This document shows positions 39,071 through 58,444 of a stretch of DNA of 64,000 bases, in pieces. How positions within the stretch are numbered: the first letter of the stretch is position 1; the number at the start of each line of letters is the position of its first letter. Source of the DNA: Gemmatimonadota bacterium. GTDB lineage: Bacteria; Gemmatimonadota; Gemmatimonadetes; Gemmatimonadales; GWC2-71-9. A program made the position numbers and the translations under genes. The notes below the pieces were generated by a model. It was not told the origin of the DNA and did not search any database. It saw only the letters and a program-made list of their open reading frames with translations. The stretch spans positions 32,001-96,000 of the forward strand of contig JAZDCY010000014.1 of assembly GCA_036679645.1 (NCBI GenBank), given 5' to 3'.

Positions 39071-39113
39071 GTGTGCAGAATGCGGAACGCATAGCGGAGT
39101 CCAATACGAACAT

Positions 39114-39152
39114 CCCCCTCTCCACGAAGTGGAGAGGGGGCAGGGGGTGAGG
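39114..39152. repeat. REP-like palindromic element inside the bcr operon
   Basis: CCCCCTCTCCAC-GAA-GTGGAGAGGGGG perfect 12-bp stem plus CAGGGGGTGAGG tail. Confidence 0.7.
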
Positions 39153-39153
39153 T

Positions 39154-40455: not shown

Positions 40456-40473
40456 CGGGATCGAGGAGAGGTC

Positions 40474-42098: not shown

Positions 42099-42100
42099 GC

Positions 42101-42412
42101 ATGCCGGCACAACCGCGTAACCCTGAGGACCTCATCAAGCCACTCGGCGCCCTTGTCGAGGGCGAGGCAAGGAGGGCCCTCTCGGAAGCGCAACTTGCAC
42201 CAGACCCGCAGCGACTCGCCGATGGATGGGAGCGGCGTTTCATCACCGACGCGCGCCGCGCGGAAGAAGTCATGGCACTGTACGAGCAACTCGGATTCGA
42301 GGTCGCCGCCGATGCAATTCGCCCGGAGGAGTTGGGCGACGAGTGCGACGATTGCCAACTGGCACTGCTCCAATTCAAGACGATCTACACCCGACCACGA
42401 CGCGCCGAATAG
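42101..42412 (+). CDS. small hypothetical protein with CxxC in the bcr operon
   Basis: GWERRF..D..R..E...LY..LGFEV...ECDDC...IYTR; fills the gap between bcrD and had. Confidence 0.7.
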   Translation: MPAQPRNPEDLIKPLGALVEGEARRALSEAQLAPDPQRLADGWERRFITDARRAEEVMALYEQLGFEVAADAIRPEELGDECDDCQLALLQFKTIYTRPRRAE

Positions 42413-42432
42413 CGGCGCGCGGGAGAACCACA

Positions 42433-43455: not shown

Positions 43456-43506
43456 ACGCTCAGGGGCTCAGGGGCTCAGAGGACGGTGTGGGCGTCCGGG
43501 CGCTCG

Positions 43507-43698
43507 TCAGCCGCCCTCGGGCCGCTCCCGCACGCGCAACCCATGTGACCGCCGCCGCCTGGCAAACAGCGCGGCCACCTCGCCCAATCGCTCAATCCGC
43601 TCGAGCTTCTCACGGAAGGGAAGCGCCAGGAAGTCCTGACGCTGCCGGCGGCGGTTCCCCTCCCATGTCGCGGTGCTCCAATCGGCCCGATCAACCAT
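43507..43698 (-). CDS. small partner protein of the nucleotidyltransferase (antitoxin-like)
   Basis: MVDRADWSTATWEGNRRRQRQDFLALPFREKLERIE; overlaps the stop of the upstream gene. Confidence 0.6.
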   Translation of the reverse strand: MVDRADWSTATWEGNRRRQRQDFLALPFREKLERIERLGEVAALFARRRRSHGLRVRERPEGG

Positions 43699-44173
43699 CG
43701 CCGGCGTCCCCATGCAGCAGCCGCAGCTCCGCAACATCCGCGAGGTCCTGCGGTCGGCCCGCCTCTCGCTTGAGTCGGAGCAGGGCCTGCAACCGAACGA
43801 CGCGTACCGGGACGCCCGGGGCCACCTCCTCCACCAGCGCGCGCCGGTACTCGTCGTCGAAGTCGAACGGCTCGACGGCGAACACGTCCACCGGGGTCTC
43901 ACGGTGCCGTCCCTTTTCCGCGATCCATCGGGCCCGTACCGCAGGATCACTGAATCCCTCGGCTGTGACAGGCAGCCGCGGCTCATAACCAAGCGACTTC
44001 AGCGCCGCAAACGCCGCCCGCACGTGCTCAGGCACGAGTTTGATGACCAGGTCCAGGTCCTCCGTGAGCCGCCCGTAGCCGTGCGCGTTCACGGCGAGTC
44101 CCCCAACGACGATGTATGGGACACCGGCATCATTCAGCGCACGCGCCACGGCCTCCACGCTCGCAACCCTCAC
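43691..44173 (-). CDS. nucleotidyltransferase-family protein
   Basis: YIVVGGLAVNAHGYGRLTEDLDL, LKREAGRPQDLADV. Confidence 0.8.
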   Translation of the reverse strand: MRVASVEAVARALNDAGVPYIVVGGLAVNAHGYGRLTEDLDLVIKLVPEHVRAAFAALKSLGYEPRLPVTAEGFSDPAVRARWIAEKGRHRETPVDVFAVEPFDFDDEYRRALVEEVAPGVPVRVVRLQALLRLKREAGRPQDLADVAELRLLHGDAGDG

Positions 44174-44469
44174 CCACTCAACTCCAGCGGCGGTTCGAGG
44201 TCGCTGGTAATCTCATTTATGGTGCAACCGTGCTTGGTGTGACGTCCGGCCGTTATCAGCATCATGTCGTTCATGGCCATCCGGACACAGGGTAGCCTGA
44301 TACAACGGGGAGTCGACCCGAATGGGAAGTACTCCATGGTATGCGAGATCCACGGCACCCTTGTTGGTTCAATAATACCGAATTCTATCCCCCGCGCGCG
44401 TCAATCCAGTGAAAACGACGCCGGGCACCTTCATCGTGTCCGTCCGCCAGACGCTCAGACGCTCGATGG

Positions 44470-44539
44470 CTATCCAACAGCTATGCCCGGCCGCCAGGCG
44501 CGCGATTGGAGTGCTTGCACGTTGTGGATCACCGCGTCG
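44470..44539 (-). repeat. detached duplicate of the 3' end of the Mur-ligase-like gene (direct repeat with 51793-51862)
   Basis: 56/70 nt identical by hand alignment; DAVIHNVQALQSRAWRPGIAVG* versus DAVIHKVQALQSRGWRPGAAIG*. Confidence 0.9.
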
Positions 44540-44821
44540 AAGCACGCGTTGTGGCCCACCAGTGTTCTGAGCGCAGATTCGCCACGCCACTTGGAGATAC
44601 AAAGCAGCAACAACAGTCGCAAAGCGATGTGTCATAGTGGGGAAAAAGCGACGTGATTTCCGCCACCGGAGGATTGCCTGATCCATGAGTTCGACCGGAC
44701 TTGATAGATTCATAGATTTTTCATCGTGCCTTTAGGCCAGGCTCTCTAGACTTATGTGGGGTGCTTGGAAAGTTCGGATTGCCTTTCTGTTGCGGCTGTA
44801 GCTCCATTTGGGGGATCATCG

Positions 44822-45433
44822 ATGCCGCTCGATAGGCACCTCGCAGCTCTTGCGACGGCGGTCGCTATCGGAGCCACGAGCCTCGTAGTCGTGCTTGGCC
44901 TACAGAACCGGTCACTCGAGACTCGCTATGGCGAAGCACGGCGTCTTGCTACGGAACTGTATCCGGGATACGGCGTCCCGGAATTCGCTACTGCTACGCT
45001 GGAGGGTGACTCCGTCGTCCTCGGCGCCGCGCCAGAGTCCGTTCGCCAACTTCTCCTCGTATTTGACACAGAGTGCGACTACTGCCGCGCCACTGTACCG
45101 GCATGGAAACAAGTGCTCAGTGTCCTCGATTCTGCTTCGTATCGGCCGATCCAGGTTCTTGGCATCTCTCTCGACAGTGACAGCGCCACGCGAGTGTACC
45201 TGGAGGACCTCGAGTTCGCTCTTCCGACGGTCACGATGCGCGACCCGAAAACCCTCCAGCTGTATCGTCTTCGGTCAGTACCTCAGACGATCCTCCTGGG
45301 GCCGCGTGGATACGTCATGTTCGCGAGGACTGGCCAGCTCTCGACCCCCGAAGCGGTAGACACTCTGCTTCAAGTAATCAAGCGTGTCGCTGGTGACGTG
45401 TCTTCCACAGAAACTGCAATACGTTCGCATTAG
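44822..45433 (+). CDS. membrane-anchored thioredoxin-fold protein (TlpA/MauD-like)
   Basis: N-terminal TM; FDTECDYC; GISLD; SVPQT cis-Pro loop. Confidence 0.8.
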   Translation: MPLDRHLAALATAVAIGATSLVVVLGLQNRSLETRYGEARRLATELYPGYGVPEFATATLEGDSVVLGAAPESVRQLLLVFDTECDYCRATVPAWKQVLSVLDSASYRPIQVLGISLDSDSATRVYLEDLEFALPTVTMRDPKTLQLYRLRSVPQTILLGPRGYVMFARTGQLSTPEAVDTLLQVIKRVAGDVSSTETAIRSH

Positions 45434-45506
45434 GGCCATGGAGAACTCCGTTGATTGGGAGCCCTGAGGAACCCACAGTGGGAACCGCAAACTGAAGGAG
45501 GACTGT

Positions 45507-45743
45507 ATGTCGCGCATCACGAAGGTTGCCGCACGAGCTTGTGGTGCGGCTATTGTCGTAGGTGGACTGCTCTTTGGCACGTCCCAAGCCCTTGCAGGCT
45601 CATCAGACGGCTGCTTGTGGGACCCTCCACACCTGGGGTCATGCGCCAACCAGGTCGACTGTCAGTACAAGTGTGATCAGTACTACGGCTATGGGTACTA
45701 CGGCAGCTGCACAGCTGGCTGTTGCCACTGTATCGAGTGGTAG
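45507..45743 (+). CDS. secreted 8-Cys defensin-like (CS-alpha-beta) peptide precursor
   Basis: RBS AAGGAGG; signal peptide ending SQALA; mature GSSDGCLWDPPHLGSCANQVDCQYKCDQYYGYGYYGSCTAGCCHCIEW. Confidence 0.85.
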   Translation: MSRITKVAARACGAAIVVGGLLFGTSQALAGSSDGCLWDPPHLGSCANQVDCQYKCDQYYGYGYYGSCTAGCCHCIEW

Positions 45744-47173
45744 CCCAGCGTGCCCGGCGGGGTGAGGCTCCCACACCTCGCCGGCCCTCAGGCTCGGGAC
45801 CGTCAAAGGACGTCTGGAACAGGCGGACGCTACGTTTCCCGACCATAACGCCTCATTTTCGCGCGCGCCCCGGGTTCCGAGGTGCGGCCGTGTTGTTACC
45901 GGTGCTTCTTGCGGCGTGCCAGCAGGAGACGATTCTCTTGCCGGGTCGTGGGGCCGCACCTCGGGATTCCTCTGCGATTGATACAAGCGGCACGACAACG
46001 GACACAACGGTAGTCCAGCGCGTGGGACTCGTACTGGCCGTTCGAGTTGGCGGCGAAGATTCAGTGCTCGCGAATGCCCTAGGATGGCAGACCAACGCGA
46101 TTCCCGGCGCTGAAGTTACAGTGCAGCGATCAGGTTCATCGATCCGGCAGACCGATCGAACTGGATTGGATGGGTCGGTAGAATTCCCTGCGCTGTTGCC
46201 CGGCGAGTACCGGGTCTCGGCCATCCGAATTCTGACGCCCAGCGAATCATCCTTGCTGGGTCCTGGGAACGAGGATGTCGACGCCTTTGGGGGGAGTACA
46301 AGTCTCATACTCGAACCGCCTGCGGCCGAGGACACCCTCGTCATCGGTGCTGGTCGCCGTGGCTCACTCGTAATCAGCGAATGGTCTTTCTATATCGCGA
46401 TCATCAACGGGACGCCCTATGAGTTCGGCGGTTTTCTGGAACTCTACAATAACTCAGACAGGACCGTGTACCTCGACGGGAAGCTGTTCGGGGCCGGGTT
46501 TTCGGCGGCGTTTGAAAGCCCCGTCGAGCCCTGCAGCACTTGGGCCACGTACCGGAATGATCCACAAGGTGTCTGGACCGAGACAGTCTTTCGCTTTCCG
46601 GGCTCAGGCCAGGACTACCCCGTAGCGCCAGGGCAGACGATAGTGATGGCGACGGACGCGATTGACCACGGTCAACTTGTCACCGGCGGACTGAACCTTC
46701 GCAATGCACAATTTGAGTTTCTCGGTAGCGGCGATGTCGATAATCCCACCGCCGCGAACATGATTGACGTGGGTCCGCGCCCCTTCACGCTCTTCGCCCA
46801 CGGGTTCTTCTTCTTCACGACTGCGGCGCTTCCCTTTCTCGCTGACGCCGTTGACCTCAGTACCCTCCCGACAGCAAGGCTTTTCGCAAGCGGAAGAGAG
46901 TACGTCCGCATACCAGCCAACAAACTACTGGACGTTGCAGCCTTGCGTTACTTCGGACCGAGCCTCGGGCCAGCGTGTCCGGAAATGGTCCATGCCAGTA
47001 TCGACGGCGCAGCGTTTCTCATGCCAGAGGACAATCCGGGCGGGGCCCGTTCGGTGCAGCGACGCGTCATCGGTAGCTTCGCGACTGGTCGTCAGGTTCT
47101 GCTACGTACCCGTACCAGTGCTCGCGATTTCGACTATCGCGTTCGCACCCCTGGTAGCCTACCCAGGCCCTGA
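45722..47173 (+). CDS. DUF4876-like lipoprotein (true start probably ~45845-45890)
   Basis: Lipobox LAAC; LVISE, FLELYNNSDRTVYLDG, FPGSGQDYPVAPG, ATDAIDH, C-terminal RTS..DF. Confidence 0.7.
   Translation: MPLYRVVAQRARRGEAPTPRRPSGSGPSKDVWNRRTLRFPTITPHFRARPGFRGAAVLLPVLLAACQQETILLPGRGAAPRDSSAIDTSGTTTDTTVVQRVGLVLAVRVGGEDSVLANALGWQTNAIPGAEVTVQRSGSSIRQTDRTGLDGSVEFPALLPGEYRVSAIRILTPSESSLLGPGNEDVDAFGGSTSLILEPPAAEDTLVIGAGRRGSLVISEWSFYIAIINGTPYEFGGFLELYNNSDRTVYLDGKLFGAGFSAAFESPVEPCSTWATYRNDPQGVWTETVFRFPGSGQDYPVAPGQTIVMATDAIDHGQLVTGGLNLRNAQFEFLGSGDVDNPTAANMIDVGPRPFTLFAHGFFFFTTAALPFLADAVDLSTLPTARLFASGREYVRIPANKLLDVAALRYFGPSLGPACPEMVHASIDGAAFLMPEDNPGGARSVQRRVIGSFATGRQVLLRTRTSARDFDYRVRTPGSLPRP
45753..45785 (+). 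terminator. GC hairpin immediately after the peptide gene (no U tract)
   Basis: CCGGCGGGGTG...CACCTCGCCGG 11-bp stem with one G-U. Confidence 0.5.
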
Positions 47174-47201
47174 TCGAACGGGCCACTGGAAGATCCCTGA
47201 C

Positions 47202-50039
47202 ATGTGCGGCCGTCGCGCAGTCCTCCCGTTCGTCCTCCTGCTGGGGGGAACCATGCACGGCACGCTTGTCTCGCAGGAGCAAGTGGTAGGTCCTCTGATC
47301 AGGGGACGGGTGACCGACCATGTGTCGGCGCTTCCCATCGCGGGAGCGATTGTGGCACTTGAGGGGAGCGGATTCAGTGCTATGACCGACACGGCTGGCA
47401 ACTACAACTTGATCAACTTGCGACCCGGACCGGCCATCCTGCTCGTTCGGATGATCGGATACGCCCCTGCCAGAGTACCGCTCGTTGTTCCACCGTCCGG
47501 CATTCTCCATCGCAACATCGCGCTGGCACGAAATGCCCTTGAACTCGCCGAGATCATCGTGACCGCTGATCCGGCCGGCCGCGCGCGCGGCGAATTGGGA
47601 ACAGCAAGTGTCATTGAACACGACGCCATCGTGAACCAGACGGCGGCGAGCATCGCTGGTATTCTCGAGCTAGTCCCCGGCATACCGCTCGCGGCTCCGG
47701 GCCTCGAGGAAGTGCAGCAGATCCAGCTCCGCACCGCCCCGGTGTCTAGCGGGGGAATAACGGCCGGCCCCAGTGGCGCCGATATCGCAGCGTTCGGCAC
47801 CACTATCATCCTCGACGGAGTTCCGCTGTCAAACAACGCCAACCTACAGAACACCGGACCGCGAGGTGAACTGCGGCCCCCTAGCTCCTCCGGGGGCGGC
47901 ATCGATCTTCGGCGCATTCCGGCATCAACTATCGAGCGCGTGGAGGTCATTCGGGGTGTGCCCTCCGCCCGCTACGGCGATCTGACTCACGGCGTGATCG
48001 TCGTCGATACGCGCGCGGGGCGAGTGTCGCCGGCAGCTACCGTCCGGTACGATGCGCGGACGACTGAAGCCAGCCTCGTCGGGGGATGGCGTTTGACCCC
48101 TGATCACACTGCCACCGCCCACTTCGACGTGGCCCGTACGAGGAAGAACCCCGGTATCACTGACGCCGATGTCCTACGCCTGACGGGACAACTGGCCCAC
48201 CGGGCGGCATTCGGGTTGCAACAGGACCAGCCCGCGACCCGTGCGCAGTTGGAGTTCGACACACGACTCGATTTCTTCCGGGTGGTCGAGGACAATCCGG
48301 AGCAGCCAGACGTTCTCCCTGGTTTCGCGACGCGCGCGAGCGACTTTGGCTTTCGGCTGTCCGAACGTGCCCGATTCCATCCGTCCCCGAACTCTGCCTT
48401 CGTGCTAACGCTGGCAATGGACCACACTCGACAGCGGTCATTTGTCCAGTCGTTCCGCCTCCGAGGAGCGCTCCCGTTCACTGATCGCCTCGAGGAAGGT
48501 CTGGCGATTGGCCGCTACGTGGGGGGCGAGTACTTGTCGCGCGTCGATCTCGAGGGAGATCCGTGGCTTGTTTATGGGCGTGGTGAGTGGGTGGGCGCGC
48601 CACGCGGTCTGGGAGGCCTGGACCATCTGTTGCGCGCGGGGTTCGAATTGCGGCGGGAGTGGAACGAGGGTGCAGGCTACCAATTCGACATCGAGTTCCC
48701 CCCCCAAGTTCGGTTCAACGGAGTACAGGGCTTTGACCGGCCAAGGCGATTCGACGCGGTGCCGCCTCTCGCGACCAGCGCCCTGTACCTGACGGACAGG
48801 ATCTCCGGGCAGCCGCTTCTTGGCATGCCCCTCCAAGTTCAGGTCGGTGCTCGCGTGGATGTTCTCCACCGTGGGACGACCTGGATCTCGGGGTACCGTG
48901 ATCTCGTCTGGCAGCCGCGCATGAACGTAGAGCTGGGGCCTCGTTGGTGGCTCCGCATCCGGGCGGGCGTCGGGAAAACGGCGAAATACCCGTCGCTTGG
49001 AAGCCTCTTCCCTCCCCCCCAATACTTCGACGTCGTCAACGTGAACTGGTTCGTGACCGATCCCGCCGAGCGTCTTGCTGTCTTGACCACGTCCATCAGC
49101 GATCCAACCAATCCAGATCTCGGACTCTCCGCCACCTGGAAGCGCGAGGTGGGCGCCGAAATGTCGCTCGGCCGGCGGGGCGGTTCTATCGCAGTCGTCC
49201 TCTTCGACGACCGAACAACAGGGGCAGTGGGGTTTCGCTCAGTCACTGGTTTCCTCACACGTGCTCGCTACGCCCTGTCCGATTCCTCCGAAGGCACCGG
49301 CGTACCCCCAACCATCATCCAACCACCGGCGTACACGGACACGGTTCCCATTCTGATCGACGAACCCACCAACAACTTGACGGTATCCAGTAAGGGCTGG
49401 GAGGTGTCCGCCAGCCTCCCGGAGATTCCCAAAACCCAAACCCGGCTTGACATCCAGGCGGCATTCATCGAGACAAGGGTCTCCCGCACGGATGTGGTTT
49501 TTGGATCCGGCACTCGGTTCTCCGAGTTTCAACTGAACGGCGCAGTTCCGCGAGCCCCATACTGGGAGGGCGCGACCGGTACCGGTCAGCGACTGACGGC
49601 CACGTTCCGCCTGGTTCACCACCAACCGCTCCTCGGCTTGGTCATCACCGGCACTATGCAGTTCATCCTGCGCGAGTCGAGACGCGACATAGGGGGAACC
49701 GATACGTTGTCTTTTGCCGGCTACGTCACGCGTGCCGGTGAGTTGGTTCCCGTCCCGACGAGTGACCGAACAGCACCCCAGTTCGCAGATCTTCGCCAAC
49801 CCCGTGGCGGCCTGCTGATCGAGCCGCGAGGCACGCCTGATGACTGGCTACTCAGTCTTCAGGTATCCAAAACGCTTCCACTGGGAGGTCGGTTTTCATT
49901 CTACGCGTTTAACGCTCTTGACCGCGAGGGCAGGTTTGCGCGTGCAGGGACCACACCGCGACCGTTTCCCAGGATGCGCTTCGGCCTCGACATCGCCATG
50001 CCGTTGCGCTCGGTTCTCGGTGCCTGGATGGATCCGTGA
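47202..50039 (+). CDS. TonB-dependent receptor with N-terminal carboxypeptidase-regulatory-like domain
   Basis: IRGRVTD...IGY; LELVPG; LDGVPLSNNANLQ; DLRRIPASTIERVEVIRGVPSARYGDLT plug motif. Confidence 0.9.
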   Translation: MCGRRAVLPFVLLLGGTMHGTLVSQEQVVGPLIRGRVTDHVSALPIAGAIVALEGSGFSAMTDTAGNYNLINLRPGPAILLVRMIGYAPARVPLVVPPSGILHRNIALARNALELAEIIVTADPAGRARGELGTASVIEHDAIVNQTAASIAGILELVPGIPLAAPGLEEVQQIQLRTAPVSSGGITAGPSGADIAAFGTTIILDGVPLSNNANLQNTGPRGELRPPSSSGGGIDLRRIPASTIERVEVIRGVPSARYGDLTHGVIVVDTRAGRVSPAATVRYDARTTEASLVGGWRLTPDHTATAHFDVARTRKNPGITDADVLRLTGQLAHRAAFGLQQDQPATRAQLEFDTRLDFFRVVEDNPEQPDVLPGFATRASDFGFRLSERARFHPSPNSAFVLTLAMDHTRQRSFVQSFRLRGALPFTDRLEEGLAIGRYVGGEYLSRVDLEGDPWLVYGRGEWVGAPRGLGGLDHLLRAGFELRREWNEGAGYQFDIEFPPQVRFNGVQGFDRPRRFDAVPPLATSALYLTDRISGQPLLGMPLQVQVGARVDVLHRGTTWISGYRDLVWQPRMNVELGPRWWLRIRAGVGKTAKYPSLGSLFPPPQYFDVVNVNWFVTDPAERLAVLTTSISDPTNPDLGLSATWKREVGAEMSLGRRGGSIAVVLFDDRTTGAVGFRSVTGFLTRARYALSDSSEGTGVPPTIIQPPAYTDTVPILIDEPTNNLTVSSKGWEVSASLPEIPKTQTRLDIQAAFIETRVSRTDVVFGSGTRFSEFQLNGAVPRAPYWEGATGTGQRLTATFRLVHHQPLLGLVITGTMQFILRESRRDIGGTDTLSFAGYVTRAGELVPVPTSDRTAPQFADLRQPRGGLLIEPRGTPDDWLLSLQVSKTLPLGGRFSFYAFNALDREGRFARAGTTPRPFPRMRFGLDIAMPLRSVLGAWMDP

Positions 50040-51601
50040 CGCGCTTCGTCACCGTCGTCTTGTGGCTAGCCACAATGCAGTCGCTGCAGGCTCAAGAGTG
50101 GACTGACGTCTGGAGCCCCTTCCGCCCGCTCTCGGACGTACCGCGGCATGGACCTCAACCGCCACACATAGCGGTGCCGCTGCTTTTTGGACCCGCCCGG
50201 GTAGGGGAACTGTGGACCGCCGGCAACCCCGCCGGGGCCGCCTGGGACGTACGTGACGCACACACGTCATTTCTCTTGAGCTATGGTCGGGAGGATGGCG
50301 CGTTCCGGCGGCCCCTCGATCCAGAGGCGGTCAACAATCCTCGCCTGGCGGCGGTCGCTTGGAGGCCGGTGCGGAGCAACATCGCCGCCGTCGGTCGCCT
50401 CACCCTAGAGCAGCAACGGCACCGGCCCGGATCCAATGCGGCGGTGGCGTTTCCGTACGGGACGAGCCCACTCGTGCCCACCGACAGCTCATCGCCGCCT
50501 ACAACCCTGACCAGAGCCCGTCTGGAGGGGCTCGTTGCGTGGCGGTTCGACCAGTGGAGCTTCGGCCTCTCGTTGGGATACGAATCCTGGGACAACCGCA
50601 CCCGGGAAACACCAGTCCCGCGCATCGGTCGTCGCGTCGCACCGGCCGGCGCCTTCGGAATCGTTCGTGCAATAGGCAGGCTGTTTCTCCTGGGCCTGCA
50701 TGTGCGCGGACGACGTACCGTGGAAACCGTGACGATCAACCCGCTGGCCGGCACCAGTACCGTCCACGAACTTGATGGCTTCAGCGACCCCGAACCAATT
50801 CCCGTCATTGCCCTTCGATACCGCCGTCGGATCACCACGGATGAAAGGGCAGCAGGGACCTCCGCGACCGGTTCGTTGGGGCTAGTCCACTGGACAGCCT
50901 ACGGGCGCAAGGAGTGGCGAGACCAGTGGCACAGCAGCCTGGAGCAGGAGAATCCTCCCGTGGACGCTTGGCGCGCGTCAGGTATCACGCTCGGTGGCGC
51001 ACTCCAGTACGTAGCTTCCAATCGAATCCCGATGATCACTGTGCACGCGTCTCGAACCTCCATCAGCGGTCACGCTGAGCGCGCCGACCTTGACGGTACG
51101 ATCTTCCGCGCGAGCGAGCGCGTGACACGCGCCGGAATCGAACTCCGCTCGGATGACACCACCGCGACCTGGGCTGGTGCCATCGGGCTCACCATTACGC
51201 ACGAGTCCCGGTTCCGGGAGGATTTCCTGGTACAACACATCGCCGATCTAAGTGAATGGACGCCGGGTGCGACCGTCGAGATAGTGCATCGCTTCGAGAC
51301 CGGGACCAGCATGGCGGTCGCAGGCTCACTCGGGTGGCACTCGGCCGTTTCTCGCATTCCGGACCCTGCCACGCTGGGCCCAATCTATCAGCAGCTCATT
51401 GCGCCCGAACTGGCGCTCTATGCGCAACGTGCCTATCCGTGGCTGGTGCGGATATCCGTGCGTCAGCGTCTGAGTACGCACACGTCACTTCTGGTCTCGG
51501 CGTCCCATCGCGTTCTTCGGCCGGCGTCTACTTCGGCAGTCCCGGCAGCCCCTGGCGGCTTGCGCAGATCATGGCATTTCCTCGCTGGACTCGTGCTCTA
51601 G
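50036..51601 (+). CDS. outer-membrane beta-barrel (DUF6850-like)
   Basis: Signal peptide; NPAG; GAFRRPLDP; amphipathic strands; ATGA-type overlap with the receptor gene. Confidence 0.6.
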   Translation: MTRFVTVVLWLATMQSLQAQEWTDVWSPFRPLSDVPRHGPQPPHIAVPLLFGPARVGELWTAGNPAGAAWDVRDAHTSFLLSYGREDGAFRRPLDPEAVNNPRLAAVAWRPVRSNIAAVGRLTLEQQRHRPGSNAAVAFPYGTSPLVPTDSSSPPTTLTRARLEGLVAWRFDQWSFGLSLGYESWDNRTRETPVPRIGRRVAPAGAFGIVRAIGRLFLLGLHVRGRRTVETVTINPLAGTSTVHELDGFSDPEPIPVIALRYRRRITTDERAAGTSATGSLGLVHWTAYGRKEWRDQWHSSLEQENPPVDAWRASGITLGGALQYVASNRIPMITVHASRTSISGHAERADLDGTIFRASERVTRAGIELRSDDTTATWAGAIGLTITHESRFREDFLVQHIADLSEWTPGATVEIVHRFETGTSMAVAGSLGWHSAVSRIPDPATLGPIYQQLIAPELALYAQRAYPWLVRISVRQRLSTHTSLLVSASHRVLRPASTSAVPAAPGGLRRSWHFLAGLVL

Positions 51602-51792
51602 GGTAACTCCCATGCGGGTATCGTCGTGCCGCCCCGCGACTTCCGTCCGCGAAGCGCGGGGCTGGACGTAACCGCGGATCGTGGCCATGACCGGGTTCTA
51701 CGCGTTCGACCTCAACGGCAACCGGCTCTGGGACGTGCATATGGGCGCCGGGGAAGAGCCGTGGTTTGCGGGGCCGCCCAGGCGCTCCGGGG

Positions 51793-53496
51793 TTACCCGA
51801 TAGCTGCACCTGGGCGCCAGCCGCGCGACTGGAGTGCCTGCACCTTGTGAATCACCGCGTCGCGCGCGGCGTGTATTGGGAGCACGATCAAGTCACCCTC
51901 CCGGGCCCACGCCAGCGCCTCGCGCAGGGCCCCCAACTCGTCGTCAACCCGTGCCACGCTTTCCTCGGCGACACCGAGTTTGTCCAGCTCGTCCGCGATG
52001 ATTGCCGCCACCTCCCCTTCCGGTCTGCCACGCAGGTAGGTCCGCATCTCCTTGATGATCACGCGATGGGGTGCGAACGTGATCGCCGCGCGCACGAGAT
52101 CACGAATGTCGTCGTCGCTCCGGTCGCCTGCCTGGCCGATTACCACGAGCCGACGTTTGGCGGGCATCGCTTGGACCATCTCGCCTACCGCTCGCATACC
52201 GTGCGGGTTGTGCGCGAAATCCAGAAAGACCCGCACTCCACCCAGATCGAACAGATGCCCTCGGCCGGGGTTCGCGTCCGGTGTACTCGCGAAGTGGTGG
52301 ATCGCCGCGCGAATGGCCGCTGATGACACACCAATGGCGCGCGCGACGGGAATGGCACCGAGAATGTTGGAGGTATTGAATTGCGCCGCACCACCGAAGG
52401 TGATCGGCGCATCGGCAACCGCACCGTAGTCTTCGGTAACCCCGCAGGTACGAAACGCAAAACGCCCATCCGCCACGAACGCGGCGTCGTCATCCGGCAT
52501 CGTATCGGTCATGCCGAACCACACGTGTGCGGCGACCTCGACATCACGAGCGCGGCGCATGACCACCGGATCGTCCGCGTTCGCCACGAGTACCCCACTC
52601 GCCCGCACGGCATGTGCGATCACGAGCTTCGCCCGGGCGATATCGTCGACGGTGGTCACGCCAAACTCACCCAGATGATCCGAGGCGACGTTGGTGAGCA
52701 GCGCGGCGTCCGCACGTTCCACCATCAAGCCTCGGCGGAGCAGCCCGCCACGGGCGGTTTCCAGCACGGCGACCTCCACGCGTCGGTCGCGCAAGATTGC
52801 GCGCGCCCCTCCCGGACCGGACCAGTCACCGGCATCGATCCGATCTCGACCGACGTAGAGCCCATCCGTATTGCTGCAACCCGCGACCTGGCCGTCTTGC
52901 GCGATCATCGCCGCAAGCAACCGTACGGTCGTGGTCTTCCCGTTGGAGCCCGTGACGAGCGCCACCCGCACGTCGTGAATCCCGTTCCAGTCCACCGCTG
53001 ACGGTGCCGGCAGGACGTGCGTGGGCCACGTCAGTGAGCCCACGCCCATCCCAACCGACACTTGATCGTCATCCCACAAGAACGCCACCCCATGGGCGCG
53101 CGCCGCTTCCCGGAGCGCGAGCATCGCAGGGTTCCGCTCAGCGGCAATGGTCGCCTGCAACCGCGGCGCAACGACCTCGAGCGGCGACGGCGACGCTCCA
53201 CCAAAGTCGGCGCAGGTGGCGGCCCAGGCCCACTCGTTCACCTCTGTCGCCGCGTAAAGCGCGTCGATGGGCACCGTGAGCACGAGACTCGCACCTCCCG
53301 GAAACGTCCGAACGGCTGTGCGCTGGTCCTTCCACCCAACCGCGTCGAGGGCGTCTCTCGCGTGCACCTTCCAGCGCGCGATGACGGCATCTCCGTCGAC
53401 GCCGGCGATATGAACGTCGAGCACCGCGCCAGCGACACTGGTCTGGAGATTGGGACCGGTCAGTCGGCGCGAGTCACGCTGTTCGAGCGTCGGCAC
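51793..53496 (-). CDS. CphA-related Mur-ligase protein lacking the ATP-grasp domain
   Basis: DSRRLTGPNL N-terminus; VTGSNGKTTT, LETARGGLLRRG, NVASDHLG, DFAHNPHG, GQAGDR. Confidence 0.85.
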   Translation of the reverse strand: MPTLEQRDSRRLTGPNLQTSVAGAVLDVHIAGVDGDAVIARWKVHARDALDAVGWKDQRTAVRTFPGGASLVLTVPIDALYAATEVNEWAWAATCADFGGASPSPLEVVAPRLQATIAAERNPAMLALREAARAHGVAFLWDDDQVSVGMGVGSLTWPTHVLPAPSAVDWNGIHDVRVALVTGSNGKTTTVRLLAAMIAQDGQVAGCSNTDGLYVGRDRIDAGDWSGPGGARAILRDRRVEVAVLETARGGLLRRGLMVERADAALLTNVASDHLGEFGVTTVDDIARAKLVIAHAVRASGVLVANADDPVVMRRARDVEVAAHVWFGMTDTMPDDDAAFVADGRFAFRTCGVTEDYGAVADAPITFGGAAQFNTSNILGAIPVARAIGVSSAAIRAAIHHFASTPDANPGRGHLFDLGGVRVFLDFAHNPHGMRAVGEMVQAMPAKRRLVVIGQAGDRSDDDIRDLVRAAITFAPHRVIIKEMRTYLRGRPEGEVAAIIADELDKLGVAEESVARVDDELGALREALAWAREGDLIVLPIHAARDAVIHKVQALQSRGWRPGAAIG

Positions 53497-53498
53497 CC

Positions 53499-56285
53499 TC
53501 AGTCTTCGGTATCGCGGGCTAGGCGCACGCCGCGCTCGTCCCGGATGACCTCCTGGCCGGCATCGATATCGATCGTCGGTAGGTCCGGCAGCTCCGGTGC
53601 TGGCCGCTTCGCGACCTCGCACCCGTCGCGCGTCGTTCCATCACTCGTGTAGTTCACCACCTGCTTCCAGGTCCGCCCAATCTGATCGGCGAAGAGCACG
53701 AGCAGATCGTCCGGCCGCGCGGCCTCGAGAGCCGCCGCCACGGCGGCCCGTTCCTCCGGGATGGTCTCGACCGCGTCCGTGGCAACACCATTGTCGATGA
53801 GGGCACGCTGCAGCATGCGGGGTACCTCATCCCCGTCTCGCCCGCGCAGGGCATCGTCGCGCCGGCAGATGTAGTGGTCGAACGCGCCCGCCGCGATCGT
53901 TCCCATTTCGATGATATCCTCGTCCCGCCGGTCGCCGGGAGCGGCTAGCACGCATAGCCGCCGGCCGACCACGTCCAAGCGGCCCACGAGATCGCACATG
54001 ACCTGAATTGCGTGGGGGTTGTGCGCGTAGTCTACGATCACCTTGAACGGCAACTCGTTGTATACGTTGAGCCGGCCCGGTGCCTGAAAGTAAGTGGAGT
54101 CGAAGGTACGGAGCCCGTGTCGGACATCTTCGAGCTTGAGACCAGCGCTGTACGCCATGGCCGCCGCGAACATGGCGTTCTGCACGTTGTGGATGGCTTT
54201 GCCCTCGATCGTCGCCGGGATGAGATGGGTCCACAGCAACGGCAAGTGCGCGCCCTTGTCGTAGAACGTGATCATGTGCCCGCTGATCGCCTGCTCGAGC
54301 ACCACCGCTCGCCCACCCGCCTGGATGTGCTCGCGGACGAGCGCGTGCTGCGGGTTCATCGTTACGTAGCAGACGTGTTCCGCATCGGAATAGTCCGCCA
54401 TCTTGAGACACAACGGGTCGTCGGCATTGAGCACGGCGGTGTTCTTCGCAATCTCGATGACCACCCGCTTCACCTCGGCCAGTTGCTCGAGCGTATCGAT
54501 ACCGCGTAGGCCAAGGTGATCGGCCTGCACGTTGAGACACGCGCTCACGTCGCTGCGGCGGTACCCCATGCCGGCGCGCAGCAGTCCACCCCGTGCCGTC
54601 TCGAGCACCGCGACCTCCACCGACGGGTCACGCAAGACCATACGCGCCGCCACTGGACCGGTCATGTCGCCTTCGACCGTCCGCTGCCCGTCGATGTACA
54701 CGCCGTCCGTCGTGGCCACGCCGACGGTGTGTCCTGCCATCTTGTAGATGTGGGCCAGCATCCGCGTCGTCGTCGTCTTGCCGTTGGTACCGGTGATTGC
54801 GAGGATGGGAATGCGGGCCGGTGTACCGGGCGGGAAGAGCATGTCCATGACCGGTCCTGCGACATCACGGGGTATCCCCTCACTCGGCTGGACGTGCATG
54901 CGGAATCCGGGAGCCGCGTTCACCTCGCAGATTGCACCGCCGATGTCCTTGTAGGACTTGGTAATGTCCGACGTGAGGAAATCCACGCCAGCCACGTCCA
55001 GGCCAATCGCCTGCGCCGCACGGACGGCCATCTCACGGTTATCCGGGTGAAGCACGTCGGTCTGATCGACCGCGGTCCCACCGGTTGATAAGTTGCCCGT
55101 CGATCGGAGGTAGACCACTTCGCCTTTGGGCAGCACGGTCTCGGACGTGTACCCCAGCAATCCGAGCAGCCGGTTAGCCTGGTAATCGAATTCGATCCGC
55201 GTCAACACCTTCTCGTGTCCGATCCCGCGTCGCGGATCGGCATTCACCTCGTCGACCAACTCCGCGATCGTGTGTACCCCATCCCCAACGACGTGCCCGG
55301 GGACACGTTTCGCCACGGCGACGAGATCACCGTTCACGACCAGCATTCTATGATCGAAGCCCGCAATGTACGACTCGATCAAGACACCGCGTGAATGCTC
55401 CCGCGCCTGGGAAAACGCCGCACGCACGTGGTCGCGGTCACCAATGTTGATCGAAACACCGCGACCGTGGTTCGCGTTCAACGGTTTGACCACTACCGGA
55501 TAGCCCATGCGTTCCGCTGCCCGCAGTGCGTCCTCTTCGGAGTAGACGAGTCGCTGCTTGGGAACGGGAAGACCAAGATCGCCGAGGATACGATTGGTCT
55601 CGTCCTTGTCGGACGAGATCTCGACCGCGATATGCGGTGTTCTACTGGTGACGGTGGCTTGGATGCGCTGCTGATAGCGACCGTGTCCGAATTGGACGAG
55701 GCTGTACTGGTTCAGCCGCAGCATGGGGATGTCGCGTTCGCGCGCCGCGCGGACGAGTGCCGCCGTTGAGGGTCCCAGGGCATGGCGCTGCGTATACCGG
55801 ATGAACGCATCGCGCTCAGTCGCGAAATCATAGTCATCGGCGACGGCACCCGCGGGCTGCAGTTCCCGCGGGAGAAGCGAATGGAGGAGATTCAGTCCCA
55901 CGCGACCGGCCTCGAGACCGACCCGTGCCTCCTCGTACTCGTACACGACGTTGTACCGTCCCGGCGCACCGGTCGTCCGCGTCCGACCAAAGGTGACTTG
56001 CTCACCGGCGGCATTCTGCAACTCGAGCGCCGTGTGTTCCAGCACGTGCCCGAGCCACGTACCTTCATCCTCCCGCAACCGCCGTACGAACCCACCGGGC
56101 TCACCGTACGAGCACCCGTGTTCGCCGAGACCCGGGAGCGCCTCCAACAACCCATCGATGAACGCGTTGCCCAGGCGCACGCTGGGCCACTCCTCGAGCG
56201 TGCCCAGGTCGAGCACGAACCGAATCACGGGGAAGTGCGCGTAGAGATTCGGGCCCAGGTAGACGGAGCGTTCGACGATGTCCAT
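53499..56285 (-). CDS. cphA: cyanophycin synthetase
   Basis: GPNLY, HGCS, GTWLGHVLEH, LGPST, KPLNANHGRG, NLSTGG, EVNAAPGFRMH, TGTNGKTT, DYAHN. Confidence 0.97.
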   Translation of the reverse strand: MDIVERSVYLGPNLYAHFPVIRFVLDLGTLEEWPSVRLGNAFIDGLLEALPGLGEHGCSYGEPGGFVRRLREDEGTWLGHVLEHTALELQNAAGEQVTFGRTRTTGAPGRYNVVYEYEEARVGLEAGRVGLNLLHSLLPRELQPAGAVADDYDFATERDAFIRYTQRHALGPSTAALVRAARERDIPMLRLNQYSLVQFGHGRYQQRIQATVTSRTPHIAVEISSDKDETNRILGDLGLPVPKQRLVYSEEDALRAAERMGYPVVVKPLNANHGRGVSINIGDRDHVRAAFSQAREHSRGVLIESYIAGFDHRMLVVNGDLVAVAKRVPGHVVGDGVHTIAELVDEVNADPRRGIGHEKVLTRIEFDYQANRLLGLLGYTSETVLPKGEVVYLRSTGNLSTGGTAVDQTDVLHPDNREMAVRAAQAIGLDVAGVDFLTSDITKSYKDIGGAICEVNAAPGFRMHVQPSEGIPRDVAGPVMDMLFPPGTPARIPILAITGTNGKTTTTRMLAHIYKMAGHTVGVATTDGVYIDGQRTVEGDMTGPVAARMVLRDPSVEVAVLETARGGLLRAGMGYRRSDVSACLNVQADHLGLRGIDTLEQLAEVKRVVIEIAKNTAVLNADDPLCLKMADYSDAEHVCYVTMNPQHALVREHIQAGGRAVVLEQAISGHMITFYDKGAHLPLLWTHLIPATIEGKAIHNVQNAMFAAAMAYSAGLKLEDVRHGLRTFDSTYFQAPGRLNVYNELPFKVIVDYAHNPHAIQVMCDLVGRLDVVGRRLCVLAAPGDRRDEDIIEMGTIAAGAFDHYICRRDDALRGRDGDEVPRMLQRALIDNGVATDAVETIPEERAAVAAALEAARPDDLLVLFADQIGRTWKQVVNYTSDGTTRDGCEVAKRPAPELPDLPTIDIDAGQEVIRDERGVRLARDTED

Positions 56286-56289
56286 GGGA

Positions 56290-57129
56290 TTAGTGCTGGG
56301 CTACGTCTGCCGGTTCCGCGGCCGTCCGCGTGGCAATGTCGAACGTCCAACCGGCCACGAGCACGTGAATCTTCAGGCCGACCAGACACACTGGGTCGTC
56401 CTGCCGCGCGGAATCCATTGAGGAGAACTCGAGTTCATGTCCGTCAGCAATCGTGAGCCCGCCCGTTCCCACCACTTCGAGACGATCGTCGGGATCGATG
56501 AATGCAGCGGTATCCTCGTCCAGCCCAACCCCGATCACGAACGGGTTGTACCCAATGGCCGTCAGCAACCGGCCCAATCGCTCCCGCTGACGAAAATGAT
56601 GATCGACCACTACCCGATTCGTGAGCCCCAACCCGGGCGCCAGCGTCACGCTGTTGGCGCGGGGCGAGAACCCTTCGTCCCCAAAGGCAATCATGTGCTC
56701 CGACAAGAAACCCGCGCCCGCCGACGTTCCGGCAACAGGCACACCCGATGCATTCAACCGACGGATCGTCCGCGCTACAGCCGTGCCTCCCATGGTGGTC
56801 GAGAGACGCAACTGGTTCCCGCCGGTGAGAAAAACACCCGTTGAGTTTTCGAAGTCCGCCAAGAGATCCTCTCGCTCGCAGTCGCCACGGGACATGAACG
56901 GATACGCTCGCGCCTCGCCCACACCCAGCTCGCCAAACACCTTCTCGTAGCGCCGCCCCGTCTCCGTCAGCTCGGACGCTGTCGGCACGATCGCGATCCG
57001 CGCGTCGTTGCCACCACACAGTTGCACAAACCGCCGGAGAATGTCCGGGTTCCGCATCTTCTTCTCGGCACCCCCAATGGGAATGATGTACCCGCGCGTG
57101 CGCCCTTCCGGGACCTGCGATGGGCTCAT
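56290..57129 (-). CDS. cphB: cyanophycinase
   Basis: IIPIGGAE, PTAS, FLTGGNQLRL, GTSAGA, DHHFRQRERLGRL, GLDEDT. Confidence 0.95.
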   Translation of the reverse strand: MSPSQVPEGRTRGYIIPIGGAEKKMRNPDILRRFVQLCGGNDARIAIVPTASELTETGRRYEKVFGELGVGEARAYPFMSRGDCEREDLLADFENSTGVFLTGGNQLRLSTTMGGTAVARTIRRLNASGVPVAGTSAGAGFLSEHMIAFGDEGFSPRANSVTLAPGLGLTNRVVVDHHFRQRERLGRLLTAIGYNPFVIGVGLDEDTAAFIDPDDRLEVVGTGGLTIADGHELEFSSMDSARQDDPVCLVGLKIHVLVAGWTFDIATRTAAEPADVAQH

Positions 57130-58310
57130 GGCGTTGCCTCGAACGCTCCGTGAATCACCTGTTCTCCTTTGTGAACGTGCCACACACCGCGAGCCATCAC
57201 GTCGGTAACGACTAGGGACGCATCGACGACCACGAGGTCGGCGTCCGCACCGGCGGCGAGCTGCCCCTTGCGACGCAGGCGCAGCAGGTCTGCCACGTTG
57301 GACGTGAACGGGGCAAGTACCTGTCCAAGATGGTGCCCCGCCTCGGTAAGCGTTCTGATGGTGTGCATGAGCGCGCCGCTTTTTCCCACGTCGTAGCGGG
57401 TAATGCGGCCATCCGCACCGAACTCGGGAAAGCAGCCGCCAGCATCTGAAGAGACCGTGATGCGGTTTGCGGGTATGTCCGCCCCCGCCCCCGCCCCCGC
57501 CCCCCACAACCGATCGAGCGCCTCCGCCGCCGAACAGCCATCGTCGGGTACGTCAGGCGGCATGCTCGTGATATCGATTGTGACCCCGTGCTGCGTCAGG
57601 GCGGCGGCCTCCTCGAGCAGCGCCTGGCTGCGATTCACGTGAGTGGGATGGAAAACGCTCGCGGGCAGGTCCGATCCGCTCATCGCGCAGCGCACCGGCT
57701 CGAGTCCTCCCTTGCCGTCACCCACGTGCAGATGAAGCGTCCCCGCCTTGCCGGTCATCATCCCTGCCACATGGGCGTCGCTCGCGAGCCGAATGAGCTC
57801 GGTCGTGGTCGGCTGGCTGGACCTGTGATCGCTGATAGCCGTCTCCCCCACACCGATGACGCGATCGACGTGGACGATATCCCCCTGCACGCTTCCCGTG
57901 AGCGTAGTGGGAGGCAGGTGGTAGCCACCCGTATAGCAGAACGCGGTGAGCCCCTCCTCCTCTAGCCCCCGCGCCGCCGCGAGCAACGAGCCGGTGTTCC
58001 GCGTAACGTCGTCCGTACCGAGGAGTCCAACAACAGTCGTGACTCCCGCTCCGGTGAAGCGGGACACGCCAACCGGCGGGACGCGGCTCCGGGCACCCGC
58101 CTCTCCGCCCCCGCCCGTGACGTGGACGTGGCCGTCGATGAGTCCCGGAAACACACGCGCGCCATCGAGGTCGACCTCCGTGACCTCATAAGCATCAGCG
58201 AGGGGTGGGGCCTTCGTCCCGATCCAGGCAATGCGGTCCTCCACGATCAGTAGATCGCACATTCCCAGATGTTCGGGGGCATACGTGTCGGCGTTGCGGA
58301 ACAGGATCAT
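57126..58310 (-). CDS. iadA: isoaspartyl dipeptidase (beta-aspartyl peptidase)
   Basis: PGLIDGHVHVTGGGGE, GLLGTD, GETAISDHRSSQP, HVGDG, PTHVNR, SSDAGG. Confidence 0.93.
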   Translation of the reverse strand: MILFRNADTYAPEHLGMCDLLIVEDRIAWIGTKAPPLADAYEVTEVDLDGARVFPGLIDGHVHVTGGGGEAGARSRVPPVGVSRFTGAGVTTVVGLLGTDDVTRNTGSLLAAARGLEEEGLTAFCYTGGYHLPPTTLTGSVQGDIVHVDRVIGVGETAISDHRSSQPTTTELIRLASDAHVAGMMTGKAGTLHLHVGDGKGGLEPVRCAMSGSDLPASVFHPTHVNRSQALLEEAAALTQHGVTIDITSMPPDVPDDGCSAAEALDRLWGAGAGAGADIPANRITVSSDAGGCFPEFGADGRITRYDVGKSGALMHTIRTLTEAGHHLGQVLAPFTSNVADLLRLRRKGQLAAGADADLVVVDASLVVTDVMARGVWHVHKGEQVIHGAFEATP

Positions 58311-58444
58311 GAGATAGAGAGGCAAATCTAGACACCACACGCTCCCAAAGGGAGAGCGACCGTGCCGCGCGCCGATGCTGCCGGTGGACCGCGTTGGCCC
58401 TGTGAGGGTATTCTCCGTCTCCCGAGCCGGATGCCGGAGGCCTC

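Follow-up and report, generated by a model that had tools for sequence, protein, structure and literature searches.

Duplicate ends of a Mur-ligase-like gene bracket a five-gene islet for a cysteine-rich peptide and its receptor lid: a probable scar of integrase-free recombination in a Gemmatimonadota bacterium

A gene at the end of a cyanophycin cluster in a Gemmatimonadota bacterium appears to end twice: a diverged copy of its 3' end lies 7.3 kb from the working one, and five genes stand between the two. How did this arrangement arise, and what do the enclosed genes do? We analysed the locus in a window of 64,000 nucleotides of contig JAZDCY010000014.1, whose numbering is used throughout. 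An earlier note had proposed that an integrative element entered the end of a cphA-like gene, supplied a replacement 3' end and displaced the original one, with a shared 12-mer as crossover core and an integrase since lost or acting in trans. We assign a probability of about 65% to the reading that an 88-base repeat is the scar of integrase-free, homology-anchored recombination which brought the five-gene islet from a related lineage, and that the products of this islet include a secreted, cysteine-rich peptide, for which folding by its own thioredoxin and capture by its own receptor lid are predicted. The features of the locus are these.

43507..44255, minus strand: nucleotidyltransferase gene pair, which we take to be toxin-antitoxin-like (88% identical to the copy on contig C49; 27-nt in-frame deletion in this copy)
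44420..44450, plus strand: N-terminal fragment of the PQQ-propeller gene represented also at 51688..51779 (31 bp, 87%, E 0.001)
44449..44464, plus strand: octamer repeat, two units (one further unit at 51780-51787)
44452..44539, minus strand: distal 3' end of the Mur-ligase-like gene (a stop codon with the 22 codons before it and the 18 bases after it); synteny with genome G002 makes it the likely displaced original
44540..51774, no strand: inserted islet, 7.2 kb (GC 62.3%, left 2.7 kb 59.3%, against 63.9% in the window; recombinase gene absent)
44822..45433, plus strand: thioredoxin-fold (TlpA/ResA-like) protein with CxxC and a hydrophobic N-terminal stretch (start possibly 44756)
45507..45743, plus strand: 78-aa peptide precursor, with a signal-peptide-like leader (by eye) and an 8-cysteine anionic mature part of predicted CS-alpha-beta (defensin) fold
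45722..47173, plus strand: DUF4876 lipoprotein, putative TBDT lid (start uncertain; lipobox, identified by eye, with cysteine codon at 45917)
47202..50039, plus strand: TonB-dependent receptor (carboxypeptidase-regulatory-like N-domain, plug)
50036..51601, plus strand: DUF6850 protein, presumably an outer-membrane barrel (Pfam DUF6850 42.4 bits, cut-off 27)
51602..51688, minus strand: remaining 5' part of a broken yggU (DUF167) gene (33/43 identical to the intact paralogue on C49)
51688..51779, plus strand: fragment of a PQQ-propeller lipoprotein gene, C-terminal part (92 bp, 92%; intact paralogue on C49)
51775..51862, minus strand: proximal copy, which serves as the 3' end of the Mur-ligase-like gene and includes 18 bases beyond the stop; probably from the donor
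51793..53496, minus strand: target gene, the final one of the iadA-cphB-cphA cluster, for a Mur-ligase-domain protein similar to the C-terminal half of cyanophycin synthetase
53499..56285, minus strand: cphA, above the NCBIfam cut-off
56290..57129, minus strand: cyanophycinase, above the NCBIfam cut-off
57126..58325, minus strand: beta-aspartyl peptidase, above the NCBIfam cut-off

The direct copies at 44470-44539 and 51793-51862 are real: they agree at 56 of 70 positions without gaps, and each reads on the minus strand as 22 codons and a stop (TAG versus TAA), with 18 of the 22 residues the same. Third codon positions hold ten of the 14 mismatches, and wholly synonymous codons hold eight. Since the best other ungapped match in the 4.05-Mb genome reaches only 44/70, the repeat is not due to chance. 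Similarity breaks off abruptly after the shared 12-mer on the gene-proximal side, just as the earlier note had described. Its claim that the repeat ends exactly at the stop codon was incorrect, for 13 of the next 18 bases also match, giving 69/88 in total (44452-44539 against 51775-51862). The target likewise had to be redefined: it is not cphA itself, but a shorter Mur-ligase-domain gene behind it. The pN/pS of this gene pair was 0.22.

The GC3 values of all five islet genes fall at the 0.3 to 5.7 percentile among 2,329 genes of the genome, and the islet is therefore foreign, as had been suggested. As for direction, the Mur-gene end in G002, a genome of the same genus, abuts hemerythrin and alcohol dehydrogenase genes with the islet absent, which makes the distal copy the probable original, now displaced. 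This part of the earlier proposal stands, whereas its attribution to an integrative element is not supported. Among the three genomes of the genus no conspecific empty site was found, G001 having neither gene nor cluster and the cluster of G002 being itself a remnant. Outgroups failed to tell the native from the donor copy, both for this pair and at the C8 islet, where they were 70-72% identical to both copies.

On the preferred reading, incoming DNA carrying the end of a cyanophycin cluster and the islet would have paired with the resident cluster, the block from cphA to the beta-aspartyl peptidase gene (53499..58325) being the likely homologous anchor. About 70 bases short of the resident stop, the far end may then have been joined, either illegitimately or, after recircularisation of the fragment, through a single crossover; the donor end would now complete the gene, and the resident end would be stranded 7.3 kb away. 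A comEC-family gene is present in the genome. In a check of the anchor, locus L063, which covers only the 5' half of the gene, was 81-91% identical without a step, and GC3 was flat.

Evidence also came from comparable loci. Three genomes together carry five members of one islet family, each placed behind the displaced end of a different, unrelated gene; the other four targets are amidohydrolase, sufD, S41 peptidase and methyltransferase genes, with no evident common core. Flanking repeats of at least 40 bp occurred at 8 of 19 islets (7 of 18 without the Mur-gene islet), against 9 of 300 random 8-kb intervals, which represent mostly core genome rather than other accessory islets, and 4 of 136 intervals at Mur loci. 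A census of 2,218 genes, based on a home-made gene caller that missed the C20 gene, returned 11 rows of end fragments facing cargo downstream of a 3' end and five upstream of a 5' end, against one row in the wrong configuration. At the queA scar the remnant adjoins tgt, and queA and tgt are neighbours in four of five relatives; at G179 two successive displaced gene ends were found. The flanks of two further islets were not counted as displaced ends: those at C97 are two whole paralogous genes (570 bp, 81%), and those at G644 are paralogues or upstream regions. Pooling ten gene/remnant pairs gave pS 0.39, pN 0.05 and dN/dS 0.09, with 101 synonymous against 39 non-synonymous differences; the two copies thus diverged under purifying selection, as judged from these substitution patterns.

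Among the alternatives, a site-specific integrative element, whose integrase recombined at the 12-mer and supplied the replacement end, is improbable. A restored gene with a displaced fragment in direct orientation does fit the island signature as outlined in parts of PMC4383910, an identical 12-mer lies at the boundary, tyrosine recombinases occur elsewhere in the genome (nine matches at eight places), and parallel scars at comM and at queA, the latter beside a CRISPR-Cas block, look like decayed islands. The gene comM is an island target, and a short literature search found no paper on it in this role. However, the 12-mer looks unremarkable, since a terminal identical run of at least 12 has P=0.07 and the 12-mer occurs eight times in the genome; the first mismatch falls within five bases of the boundary in seven of ten pairs, and the ten scars have no core in common. 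No tyrosine recombinase was found in or near the islet (on this contig the closest lies at a distance of about 73 kb), the 92.7% complete genome yielded no serine recombinase, and probing 182 loci with four of the genome's own tyrosine recombinases, a search of limited sensitivity, revealed none either. Nor is the site reused: a remnant reaching the stop was seen at 0 of 100 distant homologous loci, while the same cargo sits at five unrelated genes without a common core. An integrase lost or acting in trans is accordingly unsupported. No joint of an excised circle or of an empty site was found in the contigs of one sequencing run, although contigs drop rare variants. A joint from 44255 to 51688 was rejected as an excision product, being the paralogous C49 locus.

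Similarly improbable is a local tandem duplication of islet and gene end in a single lineage, after which the distal copy would have suffered deletions and decayed neutrally. The flanks are indeed strewn with pieces of a single block (nucleotidyltransferase pair, PQQ gene, yggU) whose order is permuted, a sign of repeated local rearrangement; a glycine common in the Mur-ligase-like family is missing from the distal copy; and the third-position bias of the Mur-gene pair alone (P=0.054) does not reject duplication and decay. The ten pooled pairs, by contrast, are far too synonymous for decay, which they reject at P about 1e-14, and to the left of the distal end there is no trace of a second islet copy. 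An assembly chimera of two strains, which the 20% difference between the ends might suggest, as in two related species, can practically be set aside, because contigs of one run, covering 44093-51717 and 51694-54195, cross both junctions without a differing letter at depths of about 94 and 105, and contamination is 0.49%. This support consists of contigs only, from the single run that holds this DNA, which is probably the source sample and hence not independent.

Integrase-free recombination from a related lineage therefore remains our preferred reading, and the surroundings of the scar bear on it as well. Both repeat copies carry the downstream octamer and adjoin debris of one PQQ-propeller gene, as expected if donor and recipient had this locus in common. 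The nucleotidyltransferase pair is an earlier insertion beside the scar. The octamer, of which the 88-base repeat contains one unit, is arrayed in tandem genome-wide (72 array stretches); such arrays were considered as a recombination signal or cause and rejected, for they lie beside this scar, yet ten boundaries show no common motif. A match in G006 that spans the right junction falls within unrelated coding sequence and was put down to chance, and a scan for promoters and terminators gave nothing above shuffled sequences.

We then considered the cargo. The thioredoxin-like protein falls just below the Pfam AhpC-TSA cut-off (25.7 bits, cut-off 26) and matches ResA-like proteins at E 8e-6. The lid protein exceeds the cut-off for DUF4876 (30.6 bits, cut-off 27.9), matches PDB 4Q1Z at E 6.5e-21 and adjoins the TonB-dependent receptor on the same strand. 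A cysteine-rich peptide gene lies behind the thioredoxin gene in 26 of 30 loci, and a lid or receptor lies within 1.5 kb in 28 of 30. Thioredoxin-peptide-lid units are duplicated, a single stretch encoding as many as five peptides; some additional lids have no peptide, and of 20 further stretches seven gave no peptide match and eight no thioredoxin match, so the lid system also exists without a detectable peptide. No paper describing this module emerged from a literature search, and the secreted peptide and its lid module are apparently undescribed so far.

The peptides are hypervariable, while CxxxC and CxC (C52, C56, C73, C75) are invariant in 28/28. The model of the islet's own peptide runs strand-helix-strand-strand (helix 49-60, strand 72-77; pLDDT 77-87 over residues 41-78), with CxxxC in the helix and CxC in the last strand. 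CS-alpha-beta proteins take all the top places in the fold and profile searches (rmsd 1.2-1.3 A over 33-36 residues), and every match is weak, with a best E of 0.0099 by profile and 0.066 by Foldseek and none at or below 0.001. The Pfam defensin-like family is matched by four of the 28 peptides, the islet's own not among them, and the best ESM Atlas score of 0.78 was uninformative. These models predict the CSαβ defensin fold for the peptide. Docking onto its own DUF4876 lid is likewise predicted: the complex model scored 0.81 against 0.05 for the best control, the runs agreed in at least 91% of contacts, partner pLDDT was at least 81, and in a benchmark such a mark was reached by 116 of 157 solved pairs and 2 of 215 mismatched pairs. 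Interface columns of the lid vary more than its other columns, which were not burial-matched (2.96 versus 1.77 bits), and lid-peptide co-variation gave a partial r of 0.13 (control sets: mean 0.07, max 0.23).

The peptide would be exported, its disulfides set by the CxxC thioredoxin-fold protein, and then caught by the lid on the TonB-dependent receptor and imported, most likely as a private lock-and-key carrier of a metal or other scarce ligand. More broadly, we tentatively propose, at somewhat less than even odds, that Gemmatimonadota-type bacteria possess a lock-and-key system. Each thioredoxin-peptide-lid unit would produce its own anionic, hypervariable peptide of defensin fold; once secreted, this peptide would be recognised by no lid but the matching DUF4876 protein and would re-enter the cell through a TonB-dependent receptor common to the units. 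It would serve as a private metallophore made on ribosomes, or as an identity signal, and integrase-free displacement at gene ends would add new specificities to the array. It is rather doubtful that the peptide is instead a bacteriocin-like toxin or kin signal, with the lid as immunity protein or receptor rather than nutrient-capture lid. The duplication of hypervariable peptides in units of up to five per stretch and the lids without peptides would suit such a role, as would the two successive displaced ends at G179, which suggest sequential addition as in the T6SS effector-immunity arrays treated in sections of PMC5361080; defensins also include antimicrobial and signalling members, according to passages of PMC11561630. 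Against it, the lid gene is encoded together with a TonB receptor, and DUF4876 loci of Bacteroidota are uptake-type and induced under iron limitation, as a portion of PMC10434189 reports. All 28 mature peptides, moreover, are anionic (net -1 to -7). Typical antimicrobial defensins are cationic, and the peptides are thus unlike them.

Were the lock-and-key system true, DUF4876 lids would gain a first ligand and bacterial defensin-fold peptides a receptor. Through the cargo, two questions come within reach of experiment: what passes through DUF4876-lidded TonB receptors, and what role non-antimicrobial defensins play in bacteria. It provides natural peptide-lid pairs by the dozen, along with a predicted interface, so that recombinant proteins could be assayed for specificity and metal binding. 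The ten pairs, for their part, show cleanly what gain of genes from a related lineage looks like when no mobile-element enzymes take part.

The scar is a known kind of event. Like homology-facilitated illegitimate recombination (HFIR) or single crossover, rare by the account in parts of PMC3240628, and like the displacement at V. cholerae T6SS and rhs loci in sections of PMC5361080, it combines one presumed homologous anchor, no integrase and a displaced 3' end behind new DNA; it further shows the HFIR-type features of no target sequence specificity, a remnant facing the cargo and both alleles under purifying selection. Successive additions at one gene end, as at G179, recall the V. cholerae loci. 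The targets here, in contrast to both, are ordinary metabolic and housekeeping genes, and the 88-bp duplication is shorter than the 109-950 bp given in PMC3240628's passages on experimental HFIR and recircularised-fragment integration. The tyrosine-integrase islands of Islander (PMC4383910) and additive flexible islands (PMC4898812), in the portions describing their structure, share the restored target, the displaced direct-orientation fragment and the foreign cargo between; unlike them, our locus has no integrase, its islet family has no conserved target and no evident shared core, and its copies show 20% mostly synonymous divergence. For the cargo, the closest relatives are the DUF4876 'alternative lid' TBDT systems of Bacteroides, BT1938/BT1939 and BT3632/BT3633 (bioRxiv 10.1101/2023.03.17.533168; PDB 4Q1Z), where a DUF4876 lipoprotein also stands beside a TonB-dependent receptor, and where the lid is predicted to cover the receptor from outside, leaving a wide opening of about 20 A, for a substrate described as unknown. 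The preprint's passages on these systems name neither thioredoxin nor peptide genes, and 'Gemmatimonad' is absent from it; here, by contrast, the lid is encoded, and duplicated, together with a thioredoxin bearing CxxC and a secreted, hypervariable peptide that the model places in the lid. The five classes of bacterial cis-defensins in sections of PMC11561630, together with plant defensins and scorpion CS-alpha-beta peptides, share with the modelled peptide the signal peptide, the CxxxC helix tied to a CxC strand, the 6-8 cysteines and high diversity. The text of PMC11561630 contains none of 'Gemmatimon', 'TonB', 'thioredoxin' and 'TlpA', whereas our peptide, known from sequence and models, is anionic, belongs to Gemmatimonadota-type genomes and is tied to a TonB receptor and a thioredoxin.

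Two same-orientation copies of one gene end bracket the islet in the window, and the arrangement can be laid out as follows:

44452..44539, minus strand: distal copy of the repeat, probably the displaced original gene end
Between the copies, plus strand: islet of five genes encoding a CxxC thioredoxin-fold protein (thioredoxin), a 78-residue cysteine-rich precursor (peptide), a DUF4876 lipoprotein (lid), a TonB-dependent receptor and a DUF6850 protein
51775..51862, minus strand: proximal copy, the working 3' end of the Mur-ligase-like gene
51793..53496, minus strand: the Mur-ligase-like target gene

The 70-bp repeat reported in the earlier note was confirmed. Its two stretches (44470-44539 and 51793-51862) match at 56/70 positions and, on the minus strand, form the final 22 codons and stop of the target gene with 18/22 residues identical, while no other ungapped match across the 4.05-Mb genome exceeds 44/70. 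The 22 codons and stop hold as claimed, but the repeat does not end exactly at the stop, since similarity runs 18 bases further (13/18), giving 69/88 in total with one octamer unit included. This octamer forms tandem arrays genome-wide (72 stretches), including 43454-43477 and 44449-44464, many of them right after stop codons and many in facing pairs. The target gene carries a Mur-ligase domain, resembles the C-terminal half of cyanophycin synthetase and is located after true cphA, cphB and iadA genes; the named records among its closest homologues are mostly Gemmatimonadota, with a best-segment identity of only about 44-61%, which makes a host of that phylum likely. In the sole run containing the locus DNA, probably the source sample, two contigs (44093-51717 and 51694-54195, depths 94 and 105) match the window letter for letter and span both junctions. 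The contigs of this run showed no joint for an empty site or an excised circle.

The GC3 of the five islet genes lies between percentiles 0.3 and 5.7 among 2,329 genes; the cph cluster spans percentiles 15-61. Together with synteny in the same-genus genome G002, this low GC3 supports the earlier view of a foreign islet that displaced a gene end. The Mur-gene end in G002 overlaps the stop of a hemerythrin gene, itself after an alcohol dehydrogenase gene, with no islet; because the distal copy lies on the dehydrogenase side, it is probably the original end. Also syntenic in G002 is a cluster at 37892-43455 with two HGD-D-family genes, BadF/BcrA-type ATPase genes and a zinc dehydrogenase, which we take to be benzoyl-CoA-reductase-like. 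All that is left of the cyanophycin cluster in G002 is the final third of the Mur-like gene (L031:10247-10888), and the query used did not detect cphA there. The search for a true empty-site allele found none, because the G002 cluster is itself a remnant and the other same-genus genome, G001, lacks the target gene; across the family the cyanophycin cluster is patchy. Debris of one gene block, intact on contig C49, adjoins both repeat copies. It comprises a pair of nucleotidyltransferase genes (88%), two pieces of a PQQ-propeller gene (31 and 92 bases) and the first part of yggU. At the position of this block, G002 has an ORF between yggU and a peptidase gene (L299:4087-4566) that presumably resembles IS200/RAYT-type transposases.

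Similar scars occur at other, unrelated genes. A census of local same-strand end fragments over 2,218 single-copy genes, with our own gene calls, gave 11 rows in nine genes for 3' ends displaced downstream, five for 5' ends upstream, one for 3' upstream, none for 5' downstream, none for inverted ends and 12 internal. Two of the nine genes look spurious: one has three rows that overlap within a probable tandem repeat, and in the other the fragment is the tail of a paralogue. Among the credible cases are queA, comM, map and a Ham1-family gene, and gyrA and dinB at the 5' end. The queA remnant adjoins tgt, and queA and tgt are neighbours in 4/5 relatives, which confirms the displacement topology. 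Between queA and its displaced 58-bp end lies a transposase-split CRISPR-Cas block (contig C9:39044-54899, L233; cas3 and cas7 by Pfam), presumably type I-C, and at the displaced map (3') and gyrA (5') ends the cargo consists of six-bladed beta-propeller (DUF5128) genes (C88:226-4269 and C5:74526-78499; L341, L342). One clear remnant appeared in 2.16 Mb of unrelated loci, so this lineage is not alone in carrying such scars.

Islets of the same family repeatedly sit behind such remnants: a second one in this genome behind an amidohydrolase end (C8; 212 bp, 78%), one in genome G438 behind sufD (140 bp, 84%), and in genome G179 one behind an S41 peptidase end (53 bp, 85%), with a second remnant within the array, and one behind a methyltransferase end (168 bp, 89%). 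The G179 methyltransferase and its remnant (L286:11792-12673) both end in TGA followed by more similar codons, and selenocysteine read-through is possible from the sequence. Out of 29 stretches examined, 19 gave usable islets with flanks, and ten were excluded as incomplete, tandemly duplicated or lying at the end of a stretch. A flanking repeat of at least 40 bp was present in 8/19, five being displaced 3' ends; with the discovery case removed, these figures are 7/18 and 4/18. Controls gave 9/300 for random intervals of the genome (seven short) and 4/136 at Mur loci (three short). The Fisher P values, 4e-6 and 0.002, are overstated, because relatives are not independent cases and the control consists largely of core DNA.

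The earlier proposal of an integrase-borne element, its integrase lost or acting in trans, is probably wrong: Pfam found no recombinase in the islet, the nine tyrosine-recombinase matches in this 92.7% complete genome lie at eight places, none near the islet, no serine recombinase was found in it, and tblastn of four of its tyrosine recombinases against 182 loci, including the islet and four others bracketed by displaced ends, gave no match. For the identical 12-mer suggested as a possible crossover core, P=0.07 for a terminal identical run of at least 12 when codon positions are kept fixed, and no motif is common to ten scar boundaries. Among 171 homologous target-gene loci, 100 had at least 3 kb of downstream sequence; these distant, partly redundant loci (the cphA end was chosen by script in two) showed 15 short weak matches and none reaching the stop, so reuse of the site by other cargoes or integrases was not seen there.

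Pooling ten gene/remnant pairs gave 101 synonymous and 39 non-synonymous differences (pS 0.39, pN 0.05, dN/dS 0.09). A model of duplication with subsequent neutral decay of the remnant, under which 40% should be synonymous, is rejected for the pool (P about 1e-14) and borderline for the Mur-gene pair alone (P=0.054). With differences mostly synonymous and neutral decay rejected, the copies are best understood as functional alleles from separate lineages, joined recently. In 7/10 pairs the copies first differ no more than five bases from the boundary, with boundaries hand-set from BLAST matches. Insertion would have proceeded by homology-facilitated illegitimate recombination or by single crossover of a recircularised fragment; either would leave such scars, and the two cannot be separated. 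For V. cholerae T6SS arrays, PMC5361080 puts forward the former as the origin of displaced 3' ends, and the latter gave 109-950-bp duplications in E. coli (PMC3240628). The scar itself is ordinary.

The cargo is apparently an undescribed peptide-receptor module with one strong structural prediction. Its spread is patchy, with thioredoxin relatives in 22/401 family genomes and the lid in 27/401 phylum genomes. In the best 30 thioredoxin loci, the window included (29 with room for a downstream gene), a cysteine-rich precursor lies directly downstream in 26, one of them frameshifted, and a lid or receptor lies within 1.5 kb in 28. Twelve of 20 further 20-kb stretches contained the thioredoxin, all with a peptide match (10 clear, two weak), and seven of the eight without it had no match to the profile, which misses a shorter peptide class. 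Thioredoxin-peptide-lid units also occur in tandem multiples. This genome has three or four more islets of the family (C19:1-7100, C24:1-6334, C8:91369-98282, C97:5107-11777). Their peptides are of the shorter class, which is about 30 residues long, has adjacent CC and ends in CxC; the one on C24 carries a frameshift. On contig C28 (26206-28670, L232), a repeated motif of roughly 31-39 bases separates small single genes, an arrangement resembling integron-type cassette arrays.

The 28 aligned precursors share a common leader and invariant CxxxC and CxC, are 26-44% identical to the window peptide and are all anionic. A profile search of 1.84 billion representatives gave 669 clusters with E values no higher than 0.001, of which 135 reached 1e-10 or lower; in ten clusters looked up, the named members are hypothetical proteins, one labelled Gemmatimonadota. 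AlphaFold2 predicts a strand-helix-strand-strand core (pLDDT 77-87), and almost every Foldseek and profile match, none of them significant, is a plant defensin or a scorpion CS-alpha-beta peptide. Modelled together, the mature peptide and the lid scored 0.81, with 0.05 for the best control (contact agreement at least 91%, partner pLDDT at least 81); the score mark is reached by 116/157 solved and 2/215 mismatched pairs, counts that are only roughly valid with our own alignments. A score owed to a memorised complex is unlikely, because 4Q1Z, the one solved structure closely related to the lid, is a single chain. The predicted lid contact columns are variable, and a lid-peptide co-variation test gave no clear signal either way.

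Our literature search, with subscription journals outside its coverage, found no paper on a defensin-like cysteine-rich peptide with a TonB-dependent receptor and thioredoxin in bacteria, and among the titles listed for Gemmatimonad and defensin nothing was relevant, although supplementary tables of bacterial defensins could include such peptides. Since the peptides are anionic and the receptor is of the import type, we favour a putative role in carrying metal or some other ligand privately; a part in toxin-immunity or kin signalling is the less likely alternative. In bioRxiv 2023.03.17.533168, DUF4876 proteins are put forward as lids whose opening is wide and for which no substrate is known, and in PMC10434189 the loci that respond strongly to iron limitation in P. 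gingivalis and B. thetaiotaomicron include DUF4876 loci. For the cis-defensins, PMC11561630 describes some members as metal-chelating and some as signalling, and one bacterial member that was tested as showing no antimicrobial activity.
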